Shown here: one piece after another, positions 1-14,037 of the stretch
Layout: every line of letters starts with the position of its first letter
Position numbering within the stretch: the first letter of the stretch is position 1
Assembly (NCBI GenBank): GCA_965226885.1
Contig: CBDDEL010000014.1
Coordinates: forward strand, 352,001 to 416,000
Source of the DNA: Opitutales bacterium
GTDB taxonomy: Bacteria > Verrucomicrobiota > Verrucomicrobiia > Opitutales > UBA2987
Reading direction: 5' to 3'
Length of the DNA: 64,000 bases
Position numbers and translations under genes: made by a program
Notes under the pieces: model-generated
The model's input: only the letters and a program-made list of their open reading frames with translations
Told to the model about the DNA's origin: nothing
Databases searched by the model: none

Positions 1-589
1 GTCATCCATAAAGCCGAACACACCGCACAGGGGTCCAACCCGCGCTTCGTGGTGACGAACCTGCCGGGCGATCCCCAGGAGCTTTACGACAAGGTATACT
101 GTGGCCGCGGTGAAATGGAGAACCGAATCAAGGAACAGATGCAATTGTTCAGCGAGCGCACCAGCGCCCATCAATGGTGGGCCAATCAGTGGCGATTGCT
201 CTTGTCGGCGCTGGCCTACACCTTGATGGAAGCCATGCGCCGGTTAGCCTTAAAAGGGACGAAGTGGGCGCGGGCCCAATGCCACACCCTGCGGCTCAAA
301 TTAATCAAGATCGGAGCGGTCATCGTGCGCAACACCCGAACGATTCACTTTCACCTAAGTGAGAGTTATCCTTGGGCCAGTCTTTTCAACCATGCGGCCC
401 GCCGATTGGTGCCAACCTAAAGGGTGCATTGGTGCTGCCCCCGGCACTACCGAACCAATGGGGGAAAGGGGGCAGTGTCTCTACACCCTGAAAAACACCT
501 AAAAATCAAGACGATCTGCTCAAAATACAAAGAAATCCATCTCCAATAGCAATAACGAGCCAAACTTTACCCTTCATGAAATATCCGGG
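1..589 (+). mobile_element. IS1380-family element, 3' part (transposase C-terminus ends at 420)
   Basis: Matches the full copies at 16405, 56033 and 60016; YCGRGEMENRIKEQ motif; ends in TIR ...ATATCCGGG followed by CTAG. Confidence 0.93.
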
Positions 590-1361
590 CTAGCCAATTT
601 CCACTGATATCGAAAAGAACACCCAAATTGGTATAGGCAACACCCATACCCCATGAAAAATTCAACTCACGATAGAGCTTGAGGCTTCGTTCTGTGTTTG
701 CAATCGCTTCATCGAGCTTACCTTGCTGGTAGCAGATGCCGCCCAATGTGTTGTAGAGACTAGCCAGAGTGGCGGAATCTTTTACGTCTTCCGTATCGAC
801 ATCTACTTCTTGAAAAACTTCGTGAGCCAACGATATCGCTCCCTCCAAATCCCCCTGGCGGAAATGAATCCAGGCCAGGCGGTCCTTCAGAGTGTGAGCT
901 AAAGCGGGGTATTGCTGCGTGGTTGTTTCACTCAAATAGCTGAAACTTTTTTCCAGAAACCCTTTGGCTTCCGCAAAGGAGCCGGTGCGTTGCTTGACGT
1001 CACCCAATTCACGCAAAGTACGGACCAGAGTGGGAGTAAAAAGGGTATATTTCGCGCCTCCCTCCCATTTTTTCAGATGGTCCAGAGTATCGGAAAATAC
1101 CAGACCGGCCTCCTCGAATTCACCGGTAAATTTTAAAGCCTGGCCCAAACCCAAACGGGCTTCGAAAAATTCTTCTTTTTGCCCATTCAATTGAGCCGGT
1201 AAAATTTCTATGGCGCGTCTGTAGTGTTTGATGGCATCATCGTTAGCACATTGCCGCCTGGCTTCACTTCCAATTTCGATTAAGTAAGAGACAGCCTTTT
1301 CCGGCTGGTTGTTTTTTAGGTAGTACTGAGCTTTATCTTCAGGGTTGGTATTTGGTGACAT
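590..1361 (-). pseudogene. Stand-alone TPR protein (paralog of the cyclase-STAND TPR module), C-terminus cut by IS1380
   Basis: TPR motifs (AIKHYRRA, LASLYNTLGGI, GVAYTNLGVL); frame runs into the IS end after ISGNWL. Confidence 0.85.
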
Positions 1362-1957
1362 AGTGGCATACTCCTTAATTTAGGGTTTTATTTTTAGTCG
1401 ATTTATATGTACAGGCATAACTACCACATAGATAGCAACTATGCCGCTTTGAAAAAGAAGGGGGATAGAAAAAGCTAATTTAGCTTTAAATTAGTTCATA
1501 GCGAACTAACGAATCTAGCTATCTATTGACTATAATCAAGGTTATAAAATGGGTATTTTGTTAAAAATATGTAAAAATACTTATTATTTACGTATAAGTA
1601 CTAATATATAATCTTGATTAAGCACGTATTACTGATATTAGCTGCAAGTTTTATAATGTATTAATAATTAATCTAAATAAACATAAAATAACTAATACAA
1701 TGTATTAGAATAATACATATAACTATTTTAAAACCAAAAGAGTGATGTAACCACGGATTACTCGGTTGGGCGCTTATAGCTGGAACAATAGTGTCTGTAA
1801 CCCGCTGTTGTTGGCATTGCCGGTCGCCGTACCGGTTTGAAAACGAGCGGCTTTATGAATCACCAGGGTTTAGCCTTGGTGATTGTTTTAAACCAAATTT
1901 TGGCTGAATCCTGCATCGCGTAGACAGTATCAGGCAGGGCGTCTTTCGGCAACCTGA

Positions 1958-3285
1958 TGACGTGTACTGGATTTGTTGGACACGGGATTCTCTTATATTC
2001 ATTGTTTATTGATTAGTGTGTCAGGCGGCTTGTTTTGGTAACGGGTTTTGTTTTCTCGTTGCCCCCCATGGGGGGCAAATATTTTCCTCGAATTGGACTG
2101 GGCTTTGGTAACTCAGAGAGGAATGTTTGCGATATCGGTTGTAGAAGATTTCCACGTATTCGAAGACAGTTGATCGCAGTTCGCGCTCGTCGGCAAAGTG
2201 GCGGCCTCGAATCGTGCTGGTCTTGAAGCGGCCGTAGAACGATTCCATGGCCGCGTTGTCGTAGCAGTTGCCTTGGGCGCTCATGCTCGGCTTCATGCCT
2301 AGTTCAGAGACCAGCCTCTGATAGTCGTCGCTGGCGTAGGGGCTGCCCCGATCGCTGTGATGAATAATCCCGGTGCGCAGTGTGCCGCGGGTCATGGCCG
2401 CGGCTTTGAGGGCCTTGCCAACCAGCTTCGCGTCGTTGTGGTTGGAAACGCTCCAGCCCAGCAGGCGTCGGCTGAACAGGTCCATCACCGTGGCCAAGTA
2501 CATCCAACCGGCCAGGGTCCGTAGGTAGGTCGTGTCCGCCACCCAGACCTCGTCGATATGGGTCGGCTGGCCATGCTTTTTAAGCACATTGGGGCTGTAA
2601 CCATAGGGATGGTTACTGTTGGTTTTTAATGGCTTAAAGCGTTTACTCTGGGTGCTTTTGATTCCCATTTCACGCATCAGACGCAGAGCCCGGTCACGGC
2701 CGCAATCGATGCCCTCATCATCCTTCAGATGGCGGTGCATTGGCCGATGCCCATAGCGGCCCTTGGCCTCTTTGTGTACCTTCAGGATCGCCCCCTTGAT
2801 TCCCTCGTCCTCGATCCGCCGGGCCGAGGGCGCTCGGTGCCTCCAGCAGTAATAGCCACTGCGACAAATCCCCATCGCCGAGCATATTTCCTCGATCTTG
2901 AAGCGCCCCTCGTTGTCTTTGACAAACTGGTACTTCATTGTTCGTCCTTGGCAAAGTAGCCCACCGTTTTTTTTAGTATCTGGTTGATCCGCTCCGAGCG
3001 GCGCAGCTCTTTGCGAAGACGATCTATCTCGGCCGCCATCTCCTTCGGACTGCTCTGTCGCTTTGAGGTGGCTTCGCCCTGCTGATCGTCCAGATAGAGC
3101 CTCTTCCACCTATACAATTGGTTGGTGTTGACCCCAAGTTTGGTCGATACCTCGGTGGCGCTCAGACCATCGAGTATCATCAGTTGAACTGCCTCATTTT
3201 TGAACTCTATACTAAAGCGTCTTCTTCCCATGCTTCGATTCTCCATTTAGGAGAATCTCGTGTCCACTTTTTCCAGTGCACATCA
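1958..3285 (-). mobile_element. IS3-family element type A (orfA 2935-3246, orfB ends 2021)
   Basis: TG..CA imperfect TIRs, TSD CTGA, A8 slippery site, WVADTTY/HSDRGS/DNAAMESF integrase motifs. Confidence 0.95.
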
Positions 3286-3331
3286 CTGATCAAAAGGGGG
3301 GCTCCAGAATTGCCGAAGAACCAAAATGCGG

Positions 3332-6300
3332 TTAATTGTTCAGGTATTTATTTAACTCCGCTTTGGCTTGTCGCAGGTTGTGCTCGCTGCCGAGATTTTG
3401 GAAAATTGTTATCGCTTCGCGGAAGTATTTAATGGCTTTATCACGCAATTGGGTGAGTTCCGGCGCTTCTTTTTCGAGATGAGTCAAGAATACCCGGCCC
3501 AGCTCCATTAGAGCCAGACCTTGTCGATAGGGGTCGCTTTGTTCTCGGGATAGATCGAGTGATCCTTGCAGAGATTGCTCAGCTTCGCTAAAATTCCCAC
3601 CTCGTGCCAGCAATAGGCCGACGATCCTCAGGCAATCGATTTTTTCATCTTGGTATCCGCCTACCCGAGCCATATGCCAGGCCTGCATGGCGGTCTGCAA
3701 GCCTTTGGTCAAATCGCCGCATTCGGCCTGCACCATGGCTAAAATCCAGCGTGCATAAACCTCGATTTCCTTTGCCCCTATGGCCATTGCCAATTCCAGG
3801 CTGATATTGGCATGACTGGCGGCATCATCGAGACGCTTTTCGAATAGAGCGATTTGAGCCAGGCTGGCCCAAGATTGGGCGACGCCCATACTTTCCCCCA
3901 GTTGTTCCCGGATGGCTAAAGCCGCTTCCAGATCTCGCCGGGTAGCTTTGTGGTCGCCCAGTGCCATGCGCAGGATGCCCAGGTTGTCCAGGCTGCAAGC
4001 CTGGTTGTCGAGGTCACCGATTTCTTTTTGCACCTTGTAGGCTCTTTCGTAATATTCAATGGCTTTTGACCAGTCACCTTCTATATCGTGAAGGACGCCG
4101 AGATTGGTTTGTGTCACACCCGTCCCCCGCAAGTTATTTTCCTCTTTATACAACTTCAGACTGAGTTCTAGTTGTTCAATGGCTGTGCCGAGATGGCCTT
4201 TTTGCCAATTGATCCCTCCCAGGGTGTTGTAGAGGCTGGCGAGGGTTCCGGTATCGTCCGATTTGTAAACGCCGGGATGAAACCGGTACGGGGGTCGGGG
4301 TAAAACCGGTACGCTTGGAATAAGGTTTAGGTTAGTAATTGCAGGTACGTCAAGGTTTAGGGTTTGGGAGTTGGTTTTGGGGATTGGCTTGGGGTCGGTG
4401 AGGAGGCCGGAGGCCGACGAGCCGGGCCCAAGGCGTTTATTGTTTTGTGCCACGGCGACGGCGTCGAGCATCGCGCAAGCGGTAGCTTTGCCCGTTGGCT
4501 TCGAGGATATGCACCCGATGGGTGAGTCGGTCCAGCAGAGCTCCGGTGAGCCGTTCGGAACCGAGCACTTCGATCCAGTTCTCAAAGGGCAGGTTGGTGG
4601 TGACGATGAGACTGGTGCGCTCGTAAGCGCGGCTGACCACGTCGAAGAGCAGTTCGGAACCGGTCTTGGAAAAAGGGACGTAACCGAGTTCGTCGAGGAT
4701 GAGTAGGTCGAGCCTTTCGAGTTGCTTCATGAAGCGCTGCAGGTCGTGGTTGTCGCGTTGCTCGAGCATATGGGTAACCAGGGCGGTGACCCCGAAGAAA
4801 CGGATCCGCCGGCCCTGGGCACAGGCGGCAAAGCCCAGGGCGGTGGCCAGGTGCGTTTTACCGGTACCGGCGTTACCGAGGAGCAGCACGTTTTCGCGCT
4901 GGTCGACATACTCCCCGCGCATGAGCTCTCGGATGAGCGCTTCGTTGATCGAGGGCTGCGCTTCAAAGGCGAAGCTCTCGAGGGTCTTGAGCACGGGGAA
5001 ACGGGCGTTTTTGATCCGCCGCTGGGCGGCCCGCTGTTCGCGTTCAATGAGCTCCCGTTCGACCAGATGCAACAAAAAGGCGGCGTAATCGAGCCGGTCC
5101 CGGGAACAAGCCGCGGCCACCGCCGGCCATTCGCGCAGGATGGTGGGCAACTTCAGTTTCTTGAGGTGATGGTGTAACAGCAGCTGGTTTTTTTCTTCCT
5201 TCATAAAGCCCCTCCTGGAATCTTGAGCAGTTCGCTGTAGGCACCGAGGTCAGGGGCGGCCACACGGACGTGACGCAGGTGTGGATGGCCGTCCCCAGCC
5301 GGAAGGTTCTGCTCCCGTAGTCTTCCTGAGGATAGAGATACTGGGCGATGGCCTCACGAGTCAGTCCCCCCACCCGCAGGGCCGAGACGACGGCCTGCTG
5401 CAAGGCCGCCATGGGGTGTTTCTCCAACAGCCGCAGCACCCGGATATACTCCCGGGTGCCTTCGCCCCCGCATTGGCTTTCGAGCCGGCGTCTGAGGACC
5501 TGCAGGCACTGCGGCAACTGCCAGCCCGAGAGTGGGCGGGCGAAGTCCAAAGCGCCCGGTTTTTTCTCCAGCAAAGCCAGGTAGTGCACCGGCTCGAAAG
5601 AGACTTGCTCTTTATCCCAAATGCGGCGGTGCCGGGCCACCTCTTGGCCCCCACAGAAGATCACCACCTGCCGACAGGACCCTTCCACCACCACCGGATG
5701 GTGGGCGCAGCGCACCGGCACCGAATAGTCGTTGCACTCGAAGCGCACCAGCGAGAGGCTGCTGACGCAGGTCGAGCGTTTGCGGCTCGCTTCAAAGGGT
5801 ATGGGCGGCAACGCCAGCATGACGGCGCGCTCCTCGGCCAGCAGTTCCTTTTTCACCGCCCTTTTCCCGCGTAATTTACGCTCCATGTCCCGCTCACATG
5901 CCTCCAACAGCTTTGCGTTGAGTTCCTCCAGGTCCCGAACCTGCGGTACCGGTACCAGGAAGTTGGCCCGGGCATAACGCACGATCCCCTCGACCACGCC
6001 CTTCTCGTTGGGCCGGGCGGGCAGACAGAAGTGTTCCTCGAACAGGTAATGGCTCTGTAGCTGCAGAAACCCGTCGGTCAGCTTGCGTTCACGCGAACCG
6101 ATAATCTTACCCACCGCCACCTTCGAGTTGTCATAGCTGATGCGCCGGGGCACCGCCCCGAAAAACTCAAAAGCTCGCAGGTGCCCCTCCCAGAAGCTCT
6201 CCGTGCACTCCCGTTCGAACACCTGCACGAAAAAGGCATCGCTGTAGGGCAGGCTCATGGCAAAAAATGGCCGCCTACGCAATTGCCCCGCCTCCTTCAC

Positions 6301-7509
6301 CAGGGCATGACCGAAGTCCACCTGTCCCTCCCCGGGGCGGTGCTCCAGCGGCACGAACACTTCCCGCCGCCTCGCTCGCAGCTCGGCCACCACCTCCTTG
6401 ACCGCCGTGTAGCCCCCTTGGTAGCCCTTCTCCCGACCCAAACGCTGGTAGATCCGTTTGGCCGTATGGCGCTGCTTCTTGGGCACGTTCCGGTCCGCTT
6501 TGAGCACCTCCTCGATCCAGCCCACATACGGATCGATCTTGCGCTCTCGCCTCTTCTTGCGCCGGTATCCCGGCGGCTGGGAATAGGCCAGCATCTTTCC
6601 CAGGGTCTCCCAGTGCAGTCCCTCTTCTCGCATTACAGAGCGCTTGCTCTGCTTGTCCCGCAGCACTTTGTGCCGCACTCTTGTCCATTGCTTCATATCT
6701 CGATACACTCCTCCTTTCTAGGATAAGCGTACCGGTTTTAAAGCGCCCTCTTTACCGTACCGGTTTTTCCCCGGCGTTTACACCGATTTATCTATTATTG
6801 AGCTTTCGATGGCGGCATTAGCGGTCTCCAGGGCATTCCGGAAATCTCCCTGCCGAAACCGGATCCAGGCAATTCGATCCATCAGTCTGCACCATAGCTG
6901 GCGTTGTTTTTCGTGCCTGGATTTGCTTAAATGATGCAACCCCAATTCAAGGTAGTTCATGGCTTCGGCAAAGGAGCCTTCGCGTTGCCGGACATCCGCC
7001 AATTCCCGTAAAGTTTCTACCAGGATCGGGGTAAAAAAAGCATGGCTGGCGCGATTTTCCCATTTTTCGAGGATTTGCAGGATGTCGAGCAGAACCGTTT
7101 GCGCCTCGACAAATTCGCCCCTCAGTTTGAGGGCATTGCCCAGGCCCAGCCGGGCTTCAAAAAACTTTTTATTATCCCCGTTGAGGCGTTTTGGGAGCAA
7201 ATCCAAGGCCTGCCGATAGTGCCGTATGGCGGACTCATTGGCGGAACAGCGCCTTGCCTCATCCCCAGCTTTAATCAGGTAATAGGCCGCTTTTTTCGGT
7301 TCATTGCTCTTTAATAATTGTAGAGCCTGGTCCTCTTCCTGTTCGGAATTTGGCAAGTGGGGTCTTTCTGTTTTGCGGAATATAATGCGCCCTGGCTTTA
7401 GGTCCTCTTGGGCTATCGGGAATTCAATTGGAGAGGATTTTAAATATCGGTTTAAAAAAAACAAGGAATATTGGTCTGAAATTTTGTTAAAAAAAGGTAA
7501 AATTTTCAT
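3332..7509 (-). pseudogene. Stand-alone TPR protein (about 550 aa reconstructed), split by IS21
   Basis: Removing 4264-6782 and one CCGATT joins IIDKS to DDTGTLASLYNTLGG in frame (1653 nt). Confidence 0.88.
4264..6782 (-). mobile_element. istA/istB: IS21-family element copy 1 (istA from 6708, frameshifted near 3' end; istB 4437-5204)
   Basis: TGTAAACGCCGGG TIRs, TSD CCGATT, istB Walker A GNAGTGKT and LLILDELG; 2 extra bases at about 5293 relative to the other copies. Confidence 0.95.
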
Positions 7510-7714
7510 AAATCGTTAATTTTGACTTTCCCATGTTTATGAGACCGGCAGGTAGATGGTGCATCAAAAATTGCCTTTTCAGCACGTTCAATTAACACTT
7601 TTTTTTGGAAAAGGCTCAGCGTGAGCTTTCTCCAGGGTGTAGGTTGGTCTATGCTTTTTGGGGAGGGAGCAGGTAATGTGGCTGCCCGGGTAAACAGGGT
7701 GTCTAATTCCGAGT

Positions 7715-10700
7715 TTAGAGCTGACGGCTTTGGATGCACAATTGCAGCGTTGTCTCGGCTTTGCTGAGGTTTGGGTTTGATCCCAGAGTTTTGAAAATGC
7801 GGATGGCTTCGCGGCAATAATTTTCTGCTTTTTCTCGGGTTGGCTCCCCATTTTCTTCTTCCGTTTCCGCTTTGTTGAGCCATGCCTGGCTTAATTCCAG
7901 TAAAGCGAGTCCCTGCCTGTAGGGGTCTCGTTGTCGAAGGGAAAGTTCCAGGGAGCTTTGCAGTGATGGCATCGCTTGATTGAATTTGCCTCCGCGTGCC
8001 AGGAGCAATCCGACAATGCGCTGGCAGTCAATTTCTTCATCCACAAATCCACCCTCGCGAGCCATTTGGTGGGCCTTTTGAGCGGTTGCAATGGCGAGTT
8101 TTAATTCACCATTATTGGCTTGGACCATGGCTAAAATCCAAATGGCGCGAACTTCAATCTCTTTTCCACCAATGGCTTTGGCCAAACTGAGGCTAATTTC
8201 AGCGTGACGGGAAGCCGCCTTTAATTGATTTTCCAGCAATCTGAGCTGGGCCAGACTGCTACGGGACCGGGCCATTCCGAAGCTTTCTCCCAATTGTTCA
8301 CGAATCTTCAAGGCGGTTTTCAGGTTGTGCTGGGACGCCGAAAAATCTCCTTTGGCCAAATATAAAATCCCCAGATTATCGAGGCTACAGGCTTGATTTT
8401 CGAGGTCACCAATCGATTTTTGCAAGGAATAAGCCCGTTCGTAACAGCTAATCGCATTGGGCCAATCGCCCCTGATATCATGGAGAACTCCGAGGTTGTT
8501 GTAGGCAACGCCCATTCCCCCCGAATAATTCAATTTATCATACCATTGCAGGCTCCGTTTCACGTGGAAAATGGCTTTATCAAGTTGACCTTGTTGCCAG
8601 CATATTCCCCCCAGAGTATTGTGCAGACTGGCCCGAATTGCCGGATTATTAATCCGGCAATTGAATAGTAACAGTTAAGCGGCGTATTGAACATCCCGAT
8701 GATGGAAGAGTTTTTTAATCAAAATTGGTTTTCGTTGCCTGCTGCGCAGGTGGGTTCGCAGACTTCCCTGCAACTCAATTTGGCTGCGCGGGGCCGGCAG
8801 GTTCTTCAAGTTGGCTTTGACCGTGTTATTCAAATACTCATCGGGGTTCAATTTGGGACTGTAAGATGGTAGATAAAAAATCCCGATCCTATCGCGGTGG
8901 GCTTCAATCCAACCGGTTACTTTTTTAGCATGATGCACTCTCAGATTGTCCACAATGAGAAAGATTTTCCGTTTGGCTCCTTTGATTAACTGGCGCAGAA
9001 ATTTGATAAACAGTTCCACATTCAAGGCTCCCTTGTAAACCATGAAACGCAGCTTTCCACGGTTGGTTATAGTCGAGATCATGCTCGTGCTAAAACGACG
9101 CGCACTGCGTTTGGCAACTGGCGTTTTACCGCGCGGAGCATAACCTCTTCCCCGATGATCTTCGCTACTGATGCCGGTGATGCCGGTTTCATCTCCCCAG
9201 TGGATTTGGGCCTGTTGCGCTTTGGCTCTGGCTTCGATGGCCGGGTAAGTTTGATCAAGCCACCTCTTAATCGCCTCAGGCTGCTGCTCATAGGCTTGTC
9301 TTCGAGGTTTTTGTGGAGTGAAACCCCAACGGCGAAGATACTCGCCCACCGTGCGGATCGGCATCTTCAAAGCAAACTGCCTTTCAATCAACTCTTGCAC
9401 CGCTTGGCGCGTCCACAGGGCAAAGGGCATCTTAAGCTGGTCGGGTCTCTTATCGGTAATCATTCGGCACACCATGCGCTCTTGTTGGGAGCTCAATCTT
9501 CGACATTGGCCCTGCCGACGGCCCCGTTGTCCAAGCCGCAGGGCTTTTGGCCCTCCATTTCGGTAAAGGGCCCACCATCTGCGCACAGCGCTGATCGATA
9601 CCTTTAAAACCACGGAAACCTCTTCATAAGTGCAACCCTCTCTTTTCAGATCCACCGCCCGACACCTCAGCTCATATATAGTCTCTTCGCTTAGTGAACG
9701 CGCATCATTCCTATTCATGAACCTACTTTAGCATAAGTTATTGATATGTCACTATTTATTTGCCGGATTAATAATATCCGATTCGGTTTCAACATTCTCA
9801 ATAGCCTGGAGGGCAGCCTCAAGGGCCTTTTGTAGTTTGCCTTGCCGGAAATAGATCCAGGCCATGCGATCCAATACAGAGTTCAACAACTCCCGGTTAT
9901 TTTGCGGCGCTATTTTATCAATTTGTTGTAAACTTGTTTCCAGGTAGTTCAATGCGGGATCGAATGCTCCTTCACGTTGGTGAACATCGGCTAACTCCCG
10001 TCGTATTTCTACCAGGGTGGTTTTAATTGAGCTGGCTTCGGAGTCCCTGTCCCATTCCTCCAATTGATCCAGAGCTTCTGCCAGGATGCGCCGAGCTTCC
10101 AGGTATTCACCGGTCAGCTTCAAGGCATTGCCCAAGCCGAGCCAGATCTTTGAATACGATTCGCACTGCTTGATTGTGGGCTGAGCAAGCAAGGTGCATG
10201 CTTTTCTGTAATGTTCGATGGCGATCTCGTTGGCGCCGCTGTTTCTGGCTTTGGCGGCCGCTTTAATCAGGTAGGGCATGGCTCTTTTCGGTTTGCTGCT
10301 CTCATAGAAATGAAAGGCCATGGCCTGCGCCTTTTCACTTTGCGGCCAGATCGAACTTTTATTAATTGCGAGGGCGGCTTGCAGGTGAATTTTCTGCCGT
10401 GGCTGCTTCAATAATGTGCTGTAAATGCCTTCCTGAATCAAGCTGTGTCTAAATGCAAAACCGATGCTGGATTTGAAGGGTTTGGGAATAATGAATTGTT
10501 TAGCCACCAGTTCCTGCATTTGCTTGGTGATGGTTCTTGTGGTTGCGCGCTTCATTTCGATCAGTAGATCCATAGGAAACGATGAACCCAGCACCGCGGC
10601 ATGATACAATGTGCGCCGCAGCGCCGCGGGAAGTTCATCATAACGAGCAAGGACTAACCCCTGGAGGCTTCCGGGCACTTTTTGCAGCGCCTCATACGCT

Positions 10701-12323
10701 CCTTCCCGCACTCGCCATGTGCCATTGTTTTTTTCCAGTTTCTCCTGGTCGATCAACATGCGGATTATTTCCTCAACGTAGAAAGGATTGCCCGCGGCCC
10801 GATCTGCTATCCTTTTTTTGAGAGGCTCGGTCTCTGCGGAAGATTCGTTTATGATCTGCTCGATAAGGCATTGGCCCTCGGCATCTGTAAGAGCCCGCAA
10901 TTGAATATCGACAAACCGGCCAGGGTTTTTTTCGGCAGCTTTTAACAGCGTCTCCAAAACCGTTTCCCTCTCCAACTGCCGGGAGCTGAAAACAAGCATC
11001 AACGGCGCGTCAGCAACCGTTTGCACCAGATACTCGAGAAAATCCCGGGAGGCCGGATCAATCCAGTGCAGGTCTTCGAAAATCAAAACGGCCGGAGTTG
11101 ATTGGGCCAGTGTCAAGAGGAGTTTGCGCAGGGCGGAGTGGATCTGCTTTTGCAGCATCTTGGCGTCTAATTTTCGAAAAAGGGCATCGAATTTTTCATC
11201 CTCAATCTGCAGGCCCAGCACGAGGGCCAAATAAGGCCGCAATTCGTCATTCTCCAAACCATGCTTTTTGAGGAATGAAAGGAGCGCTTCACTCTGCATG
11301 GGCGCCGGATCGATCTGGGACAGGTTCAAAATATCTCTTAAAAGATCGGCTACCACCCAGAGGGGTTTGGAACGAGTATAGGCGGGGCAATTCCCCTGGT
11401 AAATGTCTATATTCAAATCATCGGAGGAGGACTTGAATTCAGCGATCAGCCTGGTTTTTCCCACACCGGCTTCGCCCCACACCGGCTTCGCCTGAGAGTA
11501 TGGCAATGCAGCTGCTGATTTGACTTATGACTTCACCCAATGCCTCTTGTAATTTCGCTAAATCTTCTTCCCGCCCGATCATCGGAGTACTTAATCCTGG
11601 CAAGCCTCGCAATCGATCCGGGTTTTCCTTTATGGCCAGCGCCTGATAAGCCGCCACGGGCTTTTCTATGCCCTTAAGCTCTATCGGAGGCAGCGGCCTG
11701 TATTCAAAAAGCGGTTTCGTCGGTTGGTAGGTTTCACTACTGGCCAGGATGGTGCCTGGTTGTGCGTTTTCCTCCAACCGTTTGGCCAGGTTGACGGTGT
11801 TACCAATAACCGTATATTCCAAATGACGGTCGGGACCAATTTTCCCGGCGATGACCGATCCGGAATTGATGCCGATGCGGATTTCGAAATGAATTCCGTA
11901 TTTCCTTTTCAGCCGTCTTTTCATGGGCGGTAAAATAGCCAACATCTCAAGGGCGGCCCTGACGGCTCGTTCCGGATCGTTTTCATGGGCCACGGGGGCC
12001 CCGAATAAAGCCATCAGCCCGTCTCCCATAAATTTATCAATGGTGCCCTCAAATTTGTAAACAACCTGGGCCAACAGGCGCATGGTTTCATTGATGAAAA
12101 GGTAAACCGTTTCACTATCAAGACCTTGGGATACACCGGTGAAATTGGAAATATCCAAAAACAGAATGGTAACCTCTCGCCTTTCACCAACCTCGTCTGC
12201 GGTTATGGCATTGATTTTTTCATTGAGAGTCTCCGGCATGAGATCCCAAAGATGTTTCATCCCTTCATCCTTCGTCATGGCTGCGGATGAACGGTCTTTC
12301 AATTCGTCTTGAGTTGAATTCAT
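7715..12323 (-). pseudogene. Class III adenylate/guanylate cyclase - AAA/STAND ATPase - TPR protein (about 1155 aa reconstructed), disrupted by IS630 and a 16-bp duplication
   Basis: Cyclase motifs VTILFLDI, DKFMGDG, GNTVNLAKRL; Walker A GEAGVGKT; Walker B LIFEDLHW; TPRs; removing both lesions gives one 3468-nt frame. Confidence 0.9.
8649..9771 (-). mobile_element. IS630-family element copy 1 (transposase 8675-9718)
   Basis: TTAATCCGGCAA TIRs, TA duplication, WGDETG / VDNLRVH / YSPKLNPDE motifs. Confidence 0.95.
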
Positions 12324-12553
12324 GAAATCAGAAATTTTCTACCTTTTAAAAATCCTTCGATTTTTTGATTTTCAGGGGGGATTTTCATTAATGCATAGAT
12401 TGGTATTTATTCCAGTAAATTCCATCTTTGAAATGGGAAAGGGATTTCCCTAACCGGAACGGATTTTACTTGCCTCGCGCTGGGGCATGTGTGTCCGATG
12501 GAACAACGTTTAAATTGAGGCCTGAGGCTGATTACCCCTTCCGGCACAAAGCC

Positions 12554-13396
12554 ATGGAAAAAACTGATAATATCTCAAACAAGCCCGGGTTGCTCCACCG
12601 GTTGAGCGAATCCATCAAAAACCTGGGAAGCTATTACAGGAGTATTGACGCCGTTTATAGAAGCGAGCCGGCTTCGGAAAAAGAAAAAGAATTCGATTCC
12701 TTGCTGGAGGGTTATCCTCGCAACCACAATTATCGCATCCGGGGTAAAAAACTGATACCCAGTTACCGTCTCTTTTGCCGCGAGCGGCTTGTTGAGGACC
12801 TGTTTTTGGACGACATGGAGTCGTTTCTCGATATCGGGTGCTGCCGTGGCTATTATATATTCAAGGCGTCGGAAAAGCAGTCTTGCCGGTTGGCACTGGG
12901 CATCGATGTGTTTGAGCCTTTTATATCCATTTCCCGGCAGGTAAAGGGTTTTTTGGCCAGGGAAAACACCGATTTCAAAATGGCGGCGCTCAATGAAGTG
13001 GGCGGAAATCCGCAAAGCTACGGTGGCCCTTTCCAAACGGTTATGACGATTGGAACCTATCATTACCTTTTTTGGGGTAGCAGTCGCTGCGACAAGGCTT
13101 TTTTTGACCACCGGCGAATCCTCACCCTCCTGGCAGGATTGTGCGCGGAACGCCTGATTTTTTCTGGGCGTCTTGACTTGAAGCGACTGCCCTCAGAAAT
13201 CGCTGCCAAAGCCCGAGCGCATAAAAATGCGGATACCTACAATACGGTGGAATTCCTAAAAGTCGCAGCTGATTTTTTCAAAATCCGCGAAATCGGGTAT
13301 TTAGGCACCTACCCGCTTTACCTGATGATGAAAAAAAAAACCAGACTCTCACGGACTCGCAAAAACTGGGGTAGTGTTAACATTTTAAATGTTTAA
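12554..13396 (+). CDS. Class I SAM-dependent methyltransferase; last codons supplied by the IS1-type relic
   Basis: FLDIGCCRG motif I and GIDV motif II; frame runs into the IS end at 13370. Confidence 0.7.
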   Translation: MEKTDNISNKPGLLHRLSESIKNLGSYYRSIDAVYRSEPASEKEKEFDSLLEGYPRNHNYRIRGKKLIPSYRLFCRERLVEDLFLDDMESFLDIGCCRGYYIFKASEKQSCRLALGIDVFEPFISISRQVKGFLARENTDFKMAALNEVGGNPQSYGGPFQTVMTIGTYHYLFWGSSRCDKAFFDHRRILTLLAGLCAERLIFSGRLDLKRLPSEIAAKARAHKNADTYNTVEFLKVAADFFKIREIGYLGTYPLYLMMKKKTRLSRTRKNWGSVNILNV

Positions 13397-13812
13397 GCTG
13401 TACTTTTTAGCGTGATTATGCTGTAAACTGGACGAGGTGTGGTCATTCTGGGACCATAAGCACTCGGGACAGGTATGGCTATGGGTTGCCTTGTGCCGAC
13501 GTACCCGACAGGTCGTCGGCTTTGCCCTGGGTGATCGTAGCGATCAAACGTGCCGGCAGTTATATCACAACATCGCCCAGTCGTATCGCAACTGTGCCAC
13601 CATAAGCGATTTACGGGAAAGCTACGATAAGGTTTTCCCTCACAACAGCGCCAGCGGGAAACAATCCGGCAAAACCGCCCATATCGAACGCTGGAACAAT
13701 ACCTTGCGAAAGTCTCTGTCACGCTATGTGCGTAAAACGCTGTCATTCTCCAAGTCATTGGTTATGCATTTTCGCGTCCTGTGCTTGTTCTTTTCGTCAT
13801 GCTAAAACTACC
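13370..13812 (+). mobile_element. Internally deleted, degenerate IS1-family type B element (insA lost)
   Basis: Same ends as 47199-50660 (GGTAGTGTTAAC...ACTACC); remnant insB motif HIERWNNTLR. Confidence 0.85.
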
Positions 13813-13947
13813 CGCGAATTTCCTGAGCCAAATATTAGGCTGGCGTATTGGCGATCAATCCGCTTTATCGTTGTTTTACAAGTGCTTTGTCAAACACGAC
13901 GACAAACCGCACAAAATAAAGGATAATACTCAAATAACTCTAATAAC

Positions 13948-14037
13948 GGAGAGGTGGCAGAGTGGCCGAATGTGCCTGACTCGAAATCAGGTGTACCGGC
14001 AACGGTACCGGGGGTTCGAATCCCTCCCTCTCCGCCA
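13948..14037 (+). tRNA. tRNA-Ser(CGA)
   Basis: GGAGAGG acceptor stem, anticodon arm CCTGA-CTCGAAA-TCAGG, long variable arm, GGTTCGAATCC, encoded CCA. Confidence 0.96.

Follow-up and report, generated by a model that had tools for sequence, protein, structure and literature searches.

The DNA analysed here, referred to below as the window, is a stretch of 64,000 nucleotides (nt) from the genome of an Opitutales bacterium (assembly GCA_965226885.1, denoted G000; contig CBDDEL010000014.1, denoted C14; the window is G000:C14:352001-416000). Its left end holds three genes, A, B and C, all on the minus strand, which share a module of tetratricopeptide repeats (TPRs): A encodes a predicted class III nucleotidyl cyclase joined to a STAND NTPase and a TPR sensor, B and C encode the TPR module only, and a gene for an S8-family peptidase lies outside the window, to the left. 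Each of the four genes is broken, and comparison with related genomes and with metagenomic loci (individual loci are given L-numbers) shows that the locus is a wreck, disrupted by insertion sequences (ISs). What it once contained is an expansion, specific to this genus, of a conserved pair of genes, one for such a peptidase and one for a cyclase-STAND-TPR protein.

Gene A runs from 12323 to 7715 and carries two lesions (Table 1). When one copy of a 16-nt tandem unit inside the P-loop (copies at 11460-11475 and 11476-11491) and an IS630-family element are taken out, a scripted read-through gives a single frame of 3468 nt, that is, 1155 amino acids (aa); removal of the 16-nt duplication restores the Walker A motif GEAGVGKT, and removal of the element puts 7715-8646 in frame with 9772-11475. 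The IS630 assignment draws on transpos_IS630 (NCBIfam, 3.4e-66), on inverted repeats of 29 nt and on a check of the junction sequences. Pfam recognises in A the families Guanylate_cyc (PF00211; 93.4 bits in the window copy and 98.3 bits in the intact ortholog from the same-genus genome G002, against a cutoff of 21.9), AAA_16 (cutoff 32.6; 61.6 bits for the piece in the window, 85.8 bits for G002) and TPR_12/TPR_MalT, with TPR_MalT matching in both copies, which places A among the STAND proteins of the AAA_16/MalT-like type; a C-terminal LuxR helix-turn-helix was not found in A by Pfam. Among solved structures, the best match of the cyclase domain is CyaB (3r5g, 1.2e-31), and the alignment keeps FLDISNFT, IDKFMGDG, EYTVIG and VNLAKRLE, corresponding to the pattern FxDIxxFT, IDKFxGD, YTxIG and VNLAxRLE, whose key residues we take to be the two metal-binding aspartates, the substrate-binding lysine and threonine/aspartate, and the transition-state asparagine and arginine. 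The cyclase of A looks likely to be catalytically competent.

Gene B (7509 to 3332) becomes a frame of 550 aa from an ATG once an IS21-family element and its 6-bp target duplication (together 4258-6782; the element proper is 4264-6782) are removed. The element also matches transpos_IS21 and was delimited with its inverted repeats and junction sequences; the 3' part of B is then in frame with 6783-7509 and is 79% identical to the ortholog in G004, another genome of the genus. The leader of B, 7357-7509 (51 codons), contains stops in relatives, four in G004 and one in G003, all before the motif LPNSEQ, and the frame is open from LPNSEQ on; because the codon at this point is TTG in G000 and CTG in G004, the true start of B is uncertain. 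The segment 7357-7714, upstream of the conserved start of B, is well conserved in G003 and G004 despite these stops and corresponds to no known Rfam riboswitch. Gene C breaks off after ...DISGNW, where it meets an IS1380-family element whose end is position 593. Its 5' part matches residues 1-260 of the intact G004 ortholog (501 aa) at 88% identity, its 3' part is displaced and inverted (C14:349149-349832, plus strand; 83% identical to residues 273-501 of the same ortholog), and 17 codons are missing between the two. The similarity of the three modules begins at residue ~655-658 of A, ~53 of B and ~3-9 of C. The borders of the IS3, IS21 and IS630 elements were set from other copies in the genome (IS3) or by comparison of borders and junctions.

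To the left of the window lie the rest of the IS1380 copy, an IS1 element, the 3' part of C, a second, inverted IS1380 copy, more IS1 sequence, and the S8 peptidase gene, which is itself split (residues 13-115 at C14:351023-350715, residues 122-714 at C14:345848-344058). The IS1380 copy at the window edge and the inverted one (C14:347572-349146) are 99.9% identical over 1575 nt, and the intact copy matches NCBIfam transpos_IS1380. A single inversion between these copies was considered as the cause of the split of C and rejected: the 5' piece of the peptidase has kept its orientation and 17 codons of C are lost, so the layout needs a more complex rearrangement. The initial annotation of this DNA, made from the nucleotide sequence, had reported a cyclase/ATPase/TPR gene followed on the same strand by two paralogs without the cyclase and ATPase parts. 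That observation is confirmed in its particulars, including the length of 1155 aa, the three motifs quoted, the points at which similarity starts and the domain calls (class III cyclase, STAND AAA_16, TPR), which Pfam bears out. The premise that ISs break the reading frames also stands, although their removal alone does not suffice, A being frameshifted in the P-loop by the 16-nt duplication as well. The array of paralogs, it had been suggested, might continue to the left; instead, the flank contains the pieces listed above, and no further paralog was found there or by tblastn against the whole genome. The interpretation offered with these observations fared less well and is only partly supported, as discussed below.

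Table 1. Features of the locus (window positions unless another sequence is named) and of the related loci discussed in the text
Feature	Position	Strand	Evidence or remark
IS1380-family element, copy 2, 3' part (transposase C-terminus 1-420)	1..593	+	DDE_Tnp_1_4 5.5e-53
Gene C, 5' part, coding for aa 1-256 (TPR-only; full length ~500 aa)	594..1361	-	TPR_12 3e-20
IS3-family element (orfA/orfB) in the spacer between B and C	1958..3285	-	HTH_Tnp_1, rve; transpos_IS3 9.4e-96
Gene B, 3' part, TPR repeats to stop	3332..4257	-	TPR_12 1.6e-25
IS21-family element (istA, istB) with 6-bp target duplication, interrupting gene B	4258..6782	-	IstB_IS21 7e-74
Gene B, 5' part	6783..7509	-	open reading frame from ATG 7509; conserved coding from TTG 7356 (codon 52)
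Gene A, second half of TPR module to stop codon	7715..8646	-	TPR_12 6.8e-23, TPR_MalT 2e-13
IS630-family element with TA target duplication, interrupting gene A	8647..9771	-	DDE_3 2.9e-37
Gene A, STAND NTPase and first half of TPR module	9772..11475	-	AAA_16 1.7e-16, TPR_12
16-nt tandem duplication, second copy, inside Walker A codons	11476..11491	-	frameshifts gene A
Gene A, 5' part from the start codon, with the class III nucleotidyl cyclase domain	11492..12323	-	Guanylate_cyc 1.7e-26
Methyltransferase-like gene, divergent from A	12428..13396	+	weak Methyltransf_9/12 in window copy
Repeat tail of the G000 peptidase	L001:6098-6321 = C14:344098-344321		codon-divergent, peptide-identical units; likewise L014, L015, L017, L018
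Loci with a small protein binding cyclic nucleoside monophosphates (cNMPs)	L085, L093, L102, L104, L105 (e.g. L104:1758-2261)		mostly cyclic-nucleotide-binding domain

The genome that harbours this wreck contains ~773 near-full IS copies of six families (~245 IS1380-like, 187 IS1, 139 IS4-like, 125 IS3, 65 IS21 and 12 IS630), which, by arithmetic from counts and lengths, make up roughly a fifth of its 5.48 Mb. The same-genus assemblies measure 3.4-4.3 Mb; they are in more pieces, and IS copies may be missing from them. At the locus the insertions are clean, that is, the frames rejoin when the elements are removed, and the interrupting elements resemble many other copies in G000. With interruptions in each of A, B, C and the peptidase gene, the system has been inactivated several times over and is off in this strain. 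The state of A varies among strains. The 16-nt duplication is present in contigs of sequencing runs X1 and X2, two runs on a single sample from which the assembly may itself derive, and is absent from a contig of run X3 that covers 11136-11568 and is otherwise identical. Runs X3 and X5, which come from other, separate studies, show in A a 20-nt tandem duplication of window positions 11678-11697 that causes a different frameshift, at low depths (5.0 and 3.6). In a 90-95% similar organism represented in X1-X3, a contig crosses the IS630 site without the element. In G004, codon 964 of A is an in-frame stop (L012:13068-13070), reflecting either a pseudogene or a sequencing error, and B and C are open in that genome. 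A is damaged independently in several strains or species, and the differing short duplications may represent recurrent loss or, possibly, reversible switching.

The relatives show what the intact arrangement looks like. Among 41 genomes searched (G000, four others of the same genus, G001-G004, and 36 from elsewhere in the family and order), the 5' part of B finds matches in five, namely G000 and all four members of the genus, and in none of the remaining 36. In G003, a divergent methyltransferase-like gene is followed by an intact A (1168 aa) and then by B, which runs off the end of the contig; G004 has the same order with an IS between A and B, and the peptidase and an intact C (501 aa) nearby on the other strand, a layout that fits an IS-mediated inversion. 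In G002, an intact A (1152 aa) is followed by the peptidase and then by a third type of TPR-only gene, D, of which this copy (contig C242) carries a frameshift and an IS21 insertion; other contigs of the same genome carry a C-type gene (501 aa) followed by a peptidase and, on a contig of 2.7 kb, a B-type gene (497 aa). A second locus of G003 consists of a peptidase followed by D (499 aa), and in G001 a 493-aa TPR-only gene is followed by a peptidase. A is thus accompanied downstream, on the same strand, by a TPR-only gene in all three relatives that possess it (G002, G003 and G004), C precedes a peptidase in G004, G002, G001 and, in broken form, G000, and a peptidase precedes D in G002 and G003. 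The nucleotide-binding oligomerisation (NOD) module of A was not found in G001, an assembly that is 93% complete, and because this genome nevertheless keeps a TPR-only gene and a peptidase, the C type at least appears to need no A, and the free sensors do not appear to be mere accessories of A.

The TPR-only frames of the relatives are open over 493-501 aa, fall into three orthogroups (B, C and D) and are also called as genes in public collections. Between G000 and G004, the ratio of non-synonymous to synonymous substitution rates (dN/dS) is 0.125-0.18 for A, taken in three parts, 0.23 for B, and 0.13 and 0.33 for the 5' and 3' parts of C, with dS of 0.26 to 0.40 in these comparisons; such values point to purifying selection, under which B, C and D have been kept as separate genes of ~500 aa. 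In the maximum-likelihood tree, all 14 TPR modules of the genus form one clade (100/100) nested among outside sequences. According to Pfam, the latter include proteins that combine cyclase, AAA_16 and TPR (P0012, P0023, P0030, P0032, P0042) or AAA_16 and TPR (P0044); in addition there are a double protein of ~2300 aa (P0004), a TPR-AAA_16-TPR protein without a cyclase (P0002), fragments that still bear the end of the NOD region (P0020, P0033, P0046) and a TPR-only protein (P0031). Each orthogroup is monophyletic across species, with supports of 100/100 for B, 100/100 for D, 100/99 for C (80/95 with G001) and only 72/64 for A. The modules of the genus thus branch together from within full-length cyclase-STAND-TPR proteins, which marks the TPR-only genes as truncated duplicates and not as decaying debris. 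No remnant of a cyclase or NOD is detectable upstream of any TPR-only gene, the only matches having E above 1. The G000 paralogs share 55-58% DNA identity, their best 60-nt window is 75% identical, the longest exact run is 17 nt, and no gene-conversion tract was found among them. By these comparisons, the three TPR-only types are old duplicates of the sensor of A that have lost the 5' portion of the gene, and conversion has not made them more alike since the species diverged. The structure model of a TPR-only protein, with a predicted local distance difference test score (pLDDT) of 93, is an all-helical superhelix, for which Foldseek retrieves generic TPR superhelices (LGN/Pins, OGT, Tom70), the nearest being the peptide-binding TPR domains of LGN/Pins, and no specific family; likewise, Pfam finds in these proteins generic TPR families alone.

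The partner of these sensors has a distinctive feature of its own. Peptidase_S8 (Pfam) scores 156.8 bits in the G002 protein and 159.9 bits in the G000 piece, and D166, H254 and S455, which we take, by motif, to be the catalytic triad, are invariant in an alignment of 31 sequences; within the genus the peptidases are 71-79% identical. The AlphaFold2 (AF2) model (mean pLDDT 72) comprises an N-terminal helix that on inspection looks like a signal peptide, a pro-domain-like beta-alpha unit (51-114), the S8 domain, a C-terminal beta region and a tail, residues 638-714, with pLDDT of 22-28 and no secondary structure. In the genus, this tail is made of 11-14 units of WAGGRS or WAGGRA, and it is unique within the G000 genome. 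In G000 itself, 12 copies of WAGGRS are encoded by 10 different 18-nt units that lie on average 3.9 positions apart, all differences being synonymous; the 62 units of five genus genes include one non-synonymous variant, with TRF nucleotide matches of 75-80%. The same holds for 47 metagenome tails with at least five peptide-identical units, in which nearly every unit has its own codon spelling. Units that are identical as peptides and divergent in codons indicate strong selection on each short unit. Of the peptidase open reading frames (ORFs) that reach 500 aa and are complete at the 3' end, 54 in number, 42 contain at least three tandem units with a period of 6-7 and at most one mismatch, for example GRMIWAG, SWAWAG, GWTWSG, GGYASWS, GFDSWAD, GYLWTD and GYETWAG, and most such tails close with an end resembling ...xWV[DEG][DE]; most of the remaining tails have looser W-repeats, and two (L040, L069) have none in the last 110 residues. 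The repeat unit thus varies among lineages in both period and sequence. In the peptidase tree, the genus forms a clade with an SH-aLRT support of 100, and the D/A-linked pair (99) and the C-linked trio (98) are recovered; this topology mirrors that of the TPR tree, which indicates that sensor and peptidase were duplicated together. A complex prediction for a G002 TPR-only protein and tail residues 612-714 scored 0.00, a value that carries no weight for or against an interaction.

Beyond the genus, the pairing was surveyed by a metagenome scan based on alignment of the peptidase C-terminal region, in which the best 80 of 173 relatives were kept as loci and an A-like gene was defined by a NOD match at E < 1e-10. 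Such a gene is present in 29 of the 80 loci, in 26 of these within 205-753 bp of the peptidase; one locus (L102) has a further adjacent A-like copy, and in two others the gene is not adjacent (L041, ~3 kb off; L071, 7.3 kb off at 24% identity). Three loci have a TPR match only (L095, at a contig edge, L075 and L076), and not one of the 48 loci without any match has both flanks of at least 4 kb; by our own count, an adjacent A-like gene is found in 13 of the 14 loci with flanks of this length. In L075 and L076, which represent one metagenome organism, several TPR-family ORFs in which Pfam finds neither cyclase nor AAA_16 flank the peptidase, among them one for an 843-aa protein whose N-terminal half has no Pfam assignment. 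When only non-redundant loci of at least 9 kb are considered, 26 in all, the A-like family is represented in 22, and in the other four the peptidase is at or near a contig end. Proteins with a GAF domain occur in eight of the 26, and in five a protein of 164-167 aa matching cNMP_binding (PF00027, 5e-17) is encoded directly upstream of the peptidase (Table 1). The relative arrangement of the peptidase and the A-like gene varies, the latter being on the same strand upstream, convergent or divergent; in L057 (362-7387) the divergent gene encodes a 2342-aa double protein, zinc ribbon-cyclase-NOD-TPR-NOD-TPR, and P0004 and P0005 are likewise double-length representatives of ~2300 aa. In the A-like gene of L042, identity is 38% in the TPR module, 50% in the NOD and 62% in the cyclase; that the TPRs are the least conserved part fits a sensor that is specific to its partner.

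The same association is seen in assembled genomes of another phylum. The sole outside TPR-only candidate with a start of its own, P0031 (491 aa, 39% identity), comes from a Chloroflexi metagenome-assembled genome (MAG) in which the gene order is GAF histidine kinase, LuxR-type response regulator, TPR-only gene, GAF histidine kinase and S8 peptidase; this peptidase, one gene away from P0031, is 52% identical over 568 residues to the peptidase described here and ends in WGGGNS units. The peptidase C-terminal region is detected in five of 301 genomes sampled from the phylum of this MAG and in one of 301 from the phylum of G000, that one being G000 itself. Two of these five, G589 and G442, have a convergent neighbour immediately beside the peptidase, a full-length cyclase-STAND-TPR gene of 1192 aa in the former and 1153 aa in the latter, with GAF and BTAD-domain proteins encoded upstream. 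A pair of genes for a GAF protein (~370 aa) and a BTAD-domain protein (~335 aa) also precedes the peptidase in L037, L038 and L039, from genomes of the Chloroflexi phylum. The Chloroflexi MAG G041, with 42 matches to A across its genome, has at C330:82922-86127 a cyclase-NOD frame (611 aa) followed by a separate TPR frame (543 aa), either another detached sensor or a frameshift. Taken together, the gene neighbourhoods argue for a conserved pair of peptidase and cyclase-STAND-TPR protein that recurs across phyla.

As for the immediate surroundings of A, the methyltransferase-like gene adjoins it in G002, G003 and G004 as well, and its G002 ortholog matches Methyltransf_9 at 2.2e-07. Right after this gene, at 13369-13790, the window has an IS1-family copy; it shares 92-95% identity with a piece that sits inside the IS1 element at C14:346081-346828. 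A search of window positions 1-14000 against Rfam at E up to 0.1 gave no match, and scans for promoters and terminators gave counts not above those in shuffled sequence.

The cyclase-ATPase-TPR architecture as such is already known. The mycobacterial proteins Rv0386, Rv1358 and Rv2488c are cyclase-ATPase-TPR-LuxR proteins; like them, A combines an N-terminal class III cyclase, a STAND/AAA_16 ATPase and TPRs in one cytoplasmic protein and, unlike them, lacks the C-terminal LuxR helix-turn-helix. We know of no peptidase partner or TPR-only paralogs of these mycobacterial proteins, and literature searches gave none. With regulators of the MalT/AfsR type, A shares AAA_16 followed by a MalT-like TPR sensor and, presumably, autoinhibition that is released by a ligand and followed by oligomerisation, but its output is a cyclase and theirs a DNA-binding domain, and the NCBIfam AfsR model scores 56 bits against a cutoff of 1430. 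The best NCBIfam match is TIGR03903, a TOMM kinase/cyclase fusion, which covers the cyclase and NOD (2.3e-84, profile positions 276-923); however, the score is 284.2 bits against a cutoff of 705.75, and there is no kinase domain and no TOMM gene nearby. Pycsar systems have a similar class III-type cyclase domain, as the match to the PADLOC PycC models illustrates, but no STAND or TPR module, and the genus neighbours of A are the methyltransferase-like gene, the TPR-only genes and the S8 peptidase, with no adjacent cNMP-binding effector bearing transmembrane or TIR domains; the small cNMP-binding proteins of the five metagenome loci, unlike Pycsar effectors, carry no effector domain. The RRNPP receptors of Firmicutes (Rap, NprR, PlcR, PrgX, AimR) are TPR receptors of secreted, protease-processed oligopeptides. 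If the tail is a pheromone precursor, a possibility considered below, the resemblance is that cytoplasmic all-TPR proteins are encoded beside the source of a secreted, protease-processed oligopeptide; the differences are that the proteins described here match generic TPR families and not RRNPP, derive from a STAND sensor, are paired with a candidate pro-peptide fused to the protease and occur in hosts other than Firmicutes. Tandem identical peptide units and a subtilisin-family protease also recall the fungal alpha-factor precursor, which is cut by the S8 protease Kex2; in the present case, however, the units form part of the protease and would have to be released from it. In the literature searched, neither a pairing of cyclase-STAND-TPR proteins with subtilases, nor tails of codon-divergent, peptide-identical units, nor detached TPR-only paralogs are described, so that the gene pair is apparently unreported; the passages on cyclases and TPRs in PMC7159879 deal with other systems.

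Which function could account for these findings? The hypothesis that in our view accommodates them best, and to which we would give an even chance of being correct as a whole, is that the locus derives from an expansion of a peptidase/cyclase-STAND-TPR pair in which a peptide gates the synthesis of cyclic AMP (cAMP) and the TPR-only proteins bind without producing an output. The TPR superhelix of A, as in other STAND proteins, would keep the NTPase closed until a ligand binds; ligand-bound A would then oligomerise, and its cyclase domains would produce cAMP. The ligand would be a peptide that comes from the partner peptidase in one of two ways, as part of the repeat tail or as a product of its activity. 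The TPR-only proteins would bind a like ligand without output and could serve as buffers, competitors or adaptors to other partners, or else their role may be independent of A, as the situation in G001 suggests. Several considerations weigh against this hypothesis. The identity of the ligand is a guess from the gene neighbourhood; A and the TPR-only proteins have no signal peptide and the peptidase has one, so that a ligand derived from the tail would need to be re-imported; and B has no peptidase beside it. The damage to A in other strains or species could mean that cells can do without the system or that it is costly to them. Supports for the order in which A, B, C and D branch are 41-72, which leaves the number and order of duplications unfixed, and the TPR-only genes are joined in one clade with support of only 57/50. 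The metagenome loci are partly related (e.g. L042-L044, L111/L118 and several near-duplicates), so that the counts overstate the number of independent events, with ~15 different repeat units still represented among the loci that have an adjacent A-like gene, and the census of the pairing started from the peptidase and gives the share of peptidase loci with an A-like gene.

A more specific version, which we put forward tentatively and consider possible but well short of probable, is that the peptidase is a fused protease and pheromone precursor. The subtilase tail would be cut, by the peptidase itself or by the enzyme of a neighbouring cell, into identical W-containing hexa- or heptapeptides (SWAGGR-like in the genus), which would be imported and read by the TPRs of the STAND cyclase, leading to the production of cAMP. 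The TPR-only genes would then be receptor-only spin-offs that tune the threshold, acting as RRNPP-like receptors or as peptide sponges.

Other explanations separate some of these components from each other. The TPR-only proteins might serve the peptidase, as a chaperone, a secretion adaptor or a regulator of its expression, with no functional tie to A, adjacency to which would merely reflect their origin by tandem duplication. G001, with a TPR-only gene and a peptidase and no detected NOD of A, is in line with this idea, as are the presence of a peptidase copy beside the C and D types wherever the context is visible and the proximity of the Chloroflexi TPR-only gene to a peptidase of the same family. 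Elsewhere, however, the neighbour of the peptidase is nearly always a full-length cyclase-STAND-TPR gene, so that the link between TPR and peptidase predates the truncation and is shared with A, and B, which has no peptidase neighbour, follows A in three genomes; on balance we regard this scenario as rather unlikely. Of similarly low probability, to our mind, is that the tail is a structural or anchoring part of an ordinary protease, A a local cAMP regulator responding to an unrelated intracellular cue, and B and C spare scaffolds. Regulators are commonly encoded next to their targets, the peptidase is preceded by BTAD/SARP-like and GAF genes in G589, G442 and G358, and G000 has elsewhere at least eight genes with cNMP-binding domains whose products could read cAMP. 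Yet units that stay identical as peptides while their codons drift, and that differ between lineages as described above, would be unusual for a scaffold, AF2 predicts no fold for the tail, and the TPRs are the fastest-evolving part of A-like genes, in keeping with a partner-specific sensor.

The initial annotation had inclined towards an NLR-like signalling or defence locus. In the anti-phage form of this reading, A would sense a phage protein through its TPRs and make a cyclic-nucleotide alarm, with B and C as decoys or spare sensors. There is some basis for this: the antiviral Avs proteins are among the STAND NTPases with TPR sensors, the cyclase domain of A matches PADLOC PycC models (best 3.5e-24), and paralog arrays and a heavy IS load are usual in defence islands. 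The PycC matches, however, span the shared cyclase fold alone, and PADLOC otherwise yields a generic TPR model and Avs1b at E 0.0043 (12 bits); no curated Avs/STAND defence model matched, no nuclease, TIR or protease effector is fused to A, and no cNMP-binding effector adjoins it in the genus. What accompanies such proteins across phyla is a secreted S8 peptidase amid GAF, cNMP-binding, histidine-kinase and BTAD regulators. Moreover, A, B and C stay orthologous between species, at dN/dS of 0.13-0.33 and with no sign of diversifying exchange, and with ~773 IS copies in the genome the IS load is not specific to the locus. We consider an anti-phage role quite improbable. The related proposal that the free sensors form a recombination reservoir is not supported, given the low identity of the paralogs, the lack of long shared runs and the monophyly of the orthogroups; a role of the TPR-only proteins as decoys or trans-regulators, in contrast, is compatible with the data. 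Least probable of all is that B and C are dead, functionless remnants of full-length duplicates. Both are interrupted in G000, they are truncated copies in origin, and the D copy on C242 of G002 is frameshifted and cut by IS21. Nevertheless, relatives hold open frames of 493-501 aa in three orthogroups, dN/dS is low at dS of ~0.26-0.40, the 5' ends are clean, without a trace of NOD or cyclase, and the IS insertions are clean as well, with elements like many others in G000. The description of these genes as remnants of full-length duplicates is accordingly right as to their origin and fails as to their present state, since they are old, clean and conserved, with no detectable remnant of the lost part.

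Cyclase-STAND-TPR proteins are common in genomes, their ligands and roles being mostly undefined, and the locus described here offers a specific partner that can be tested. The pairing with the peptidase provides a concrete hypothesis on the ligand of a STAND sensor and a possible route of peptide signalling in bacteria without a known one. Should the pheromone version of the hypothesis prove true, there would be peptide-based quorum sensing or proteolysis sensing outside Firmicutes, built from a STAND protein, present in several phyla and with a repeat unit that gives each lineage its own 'pherotype'. Within the genus, the TPR-only genes amount to an experiment of nature in which a STAND sensor has been separated from the engine that drives its output.

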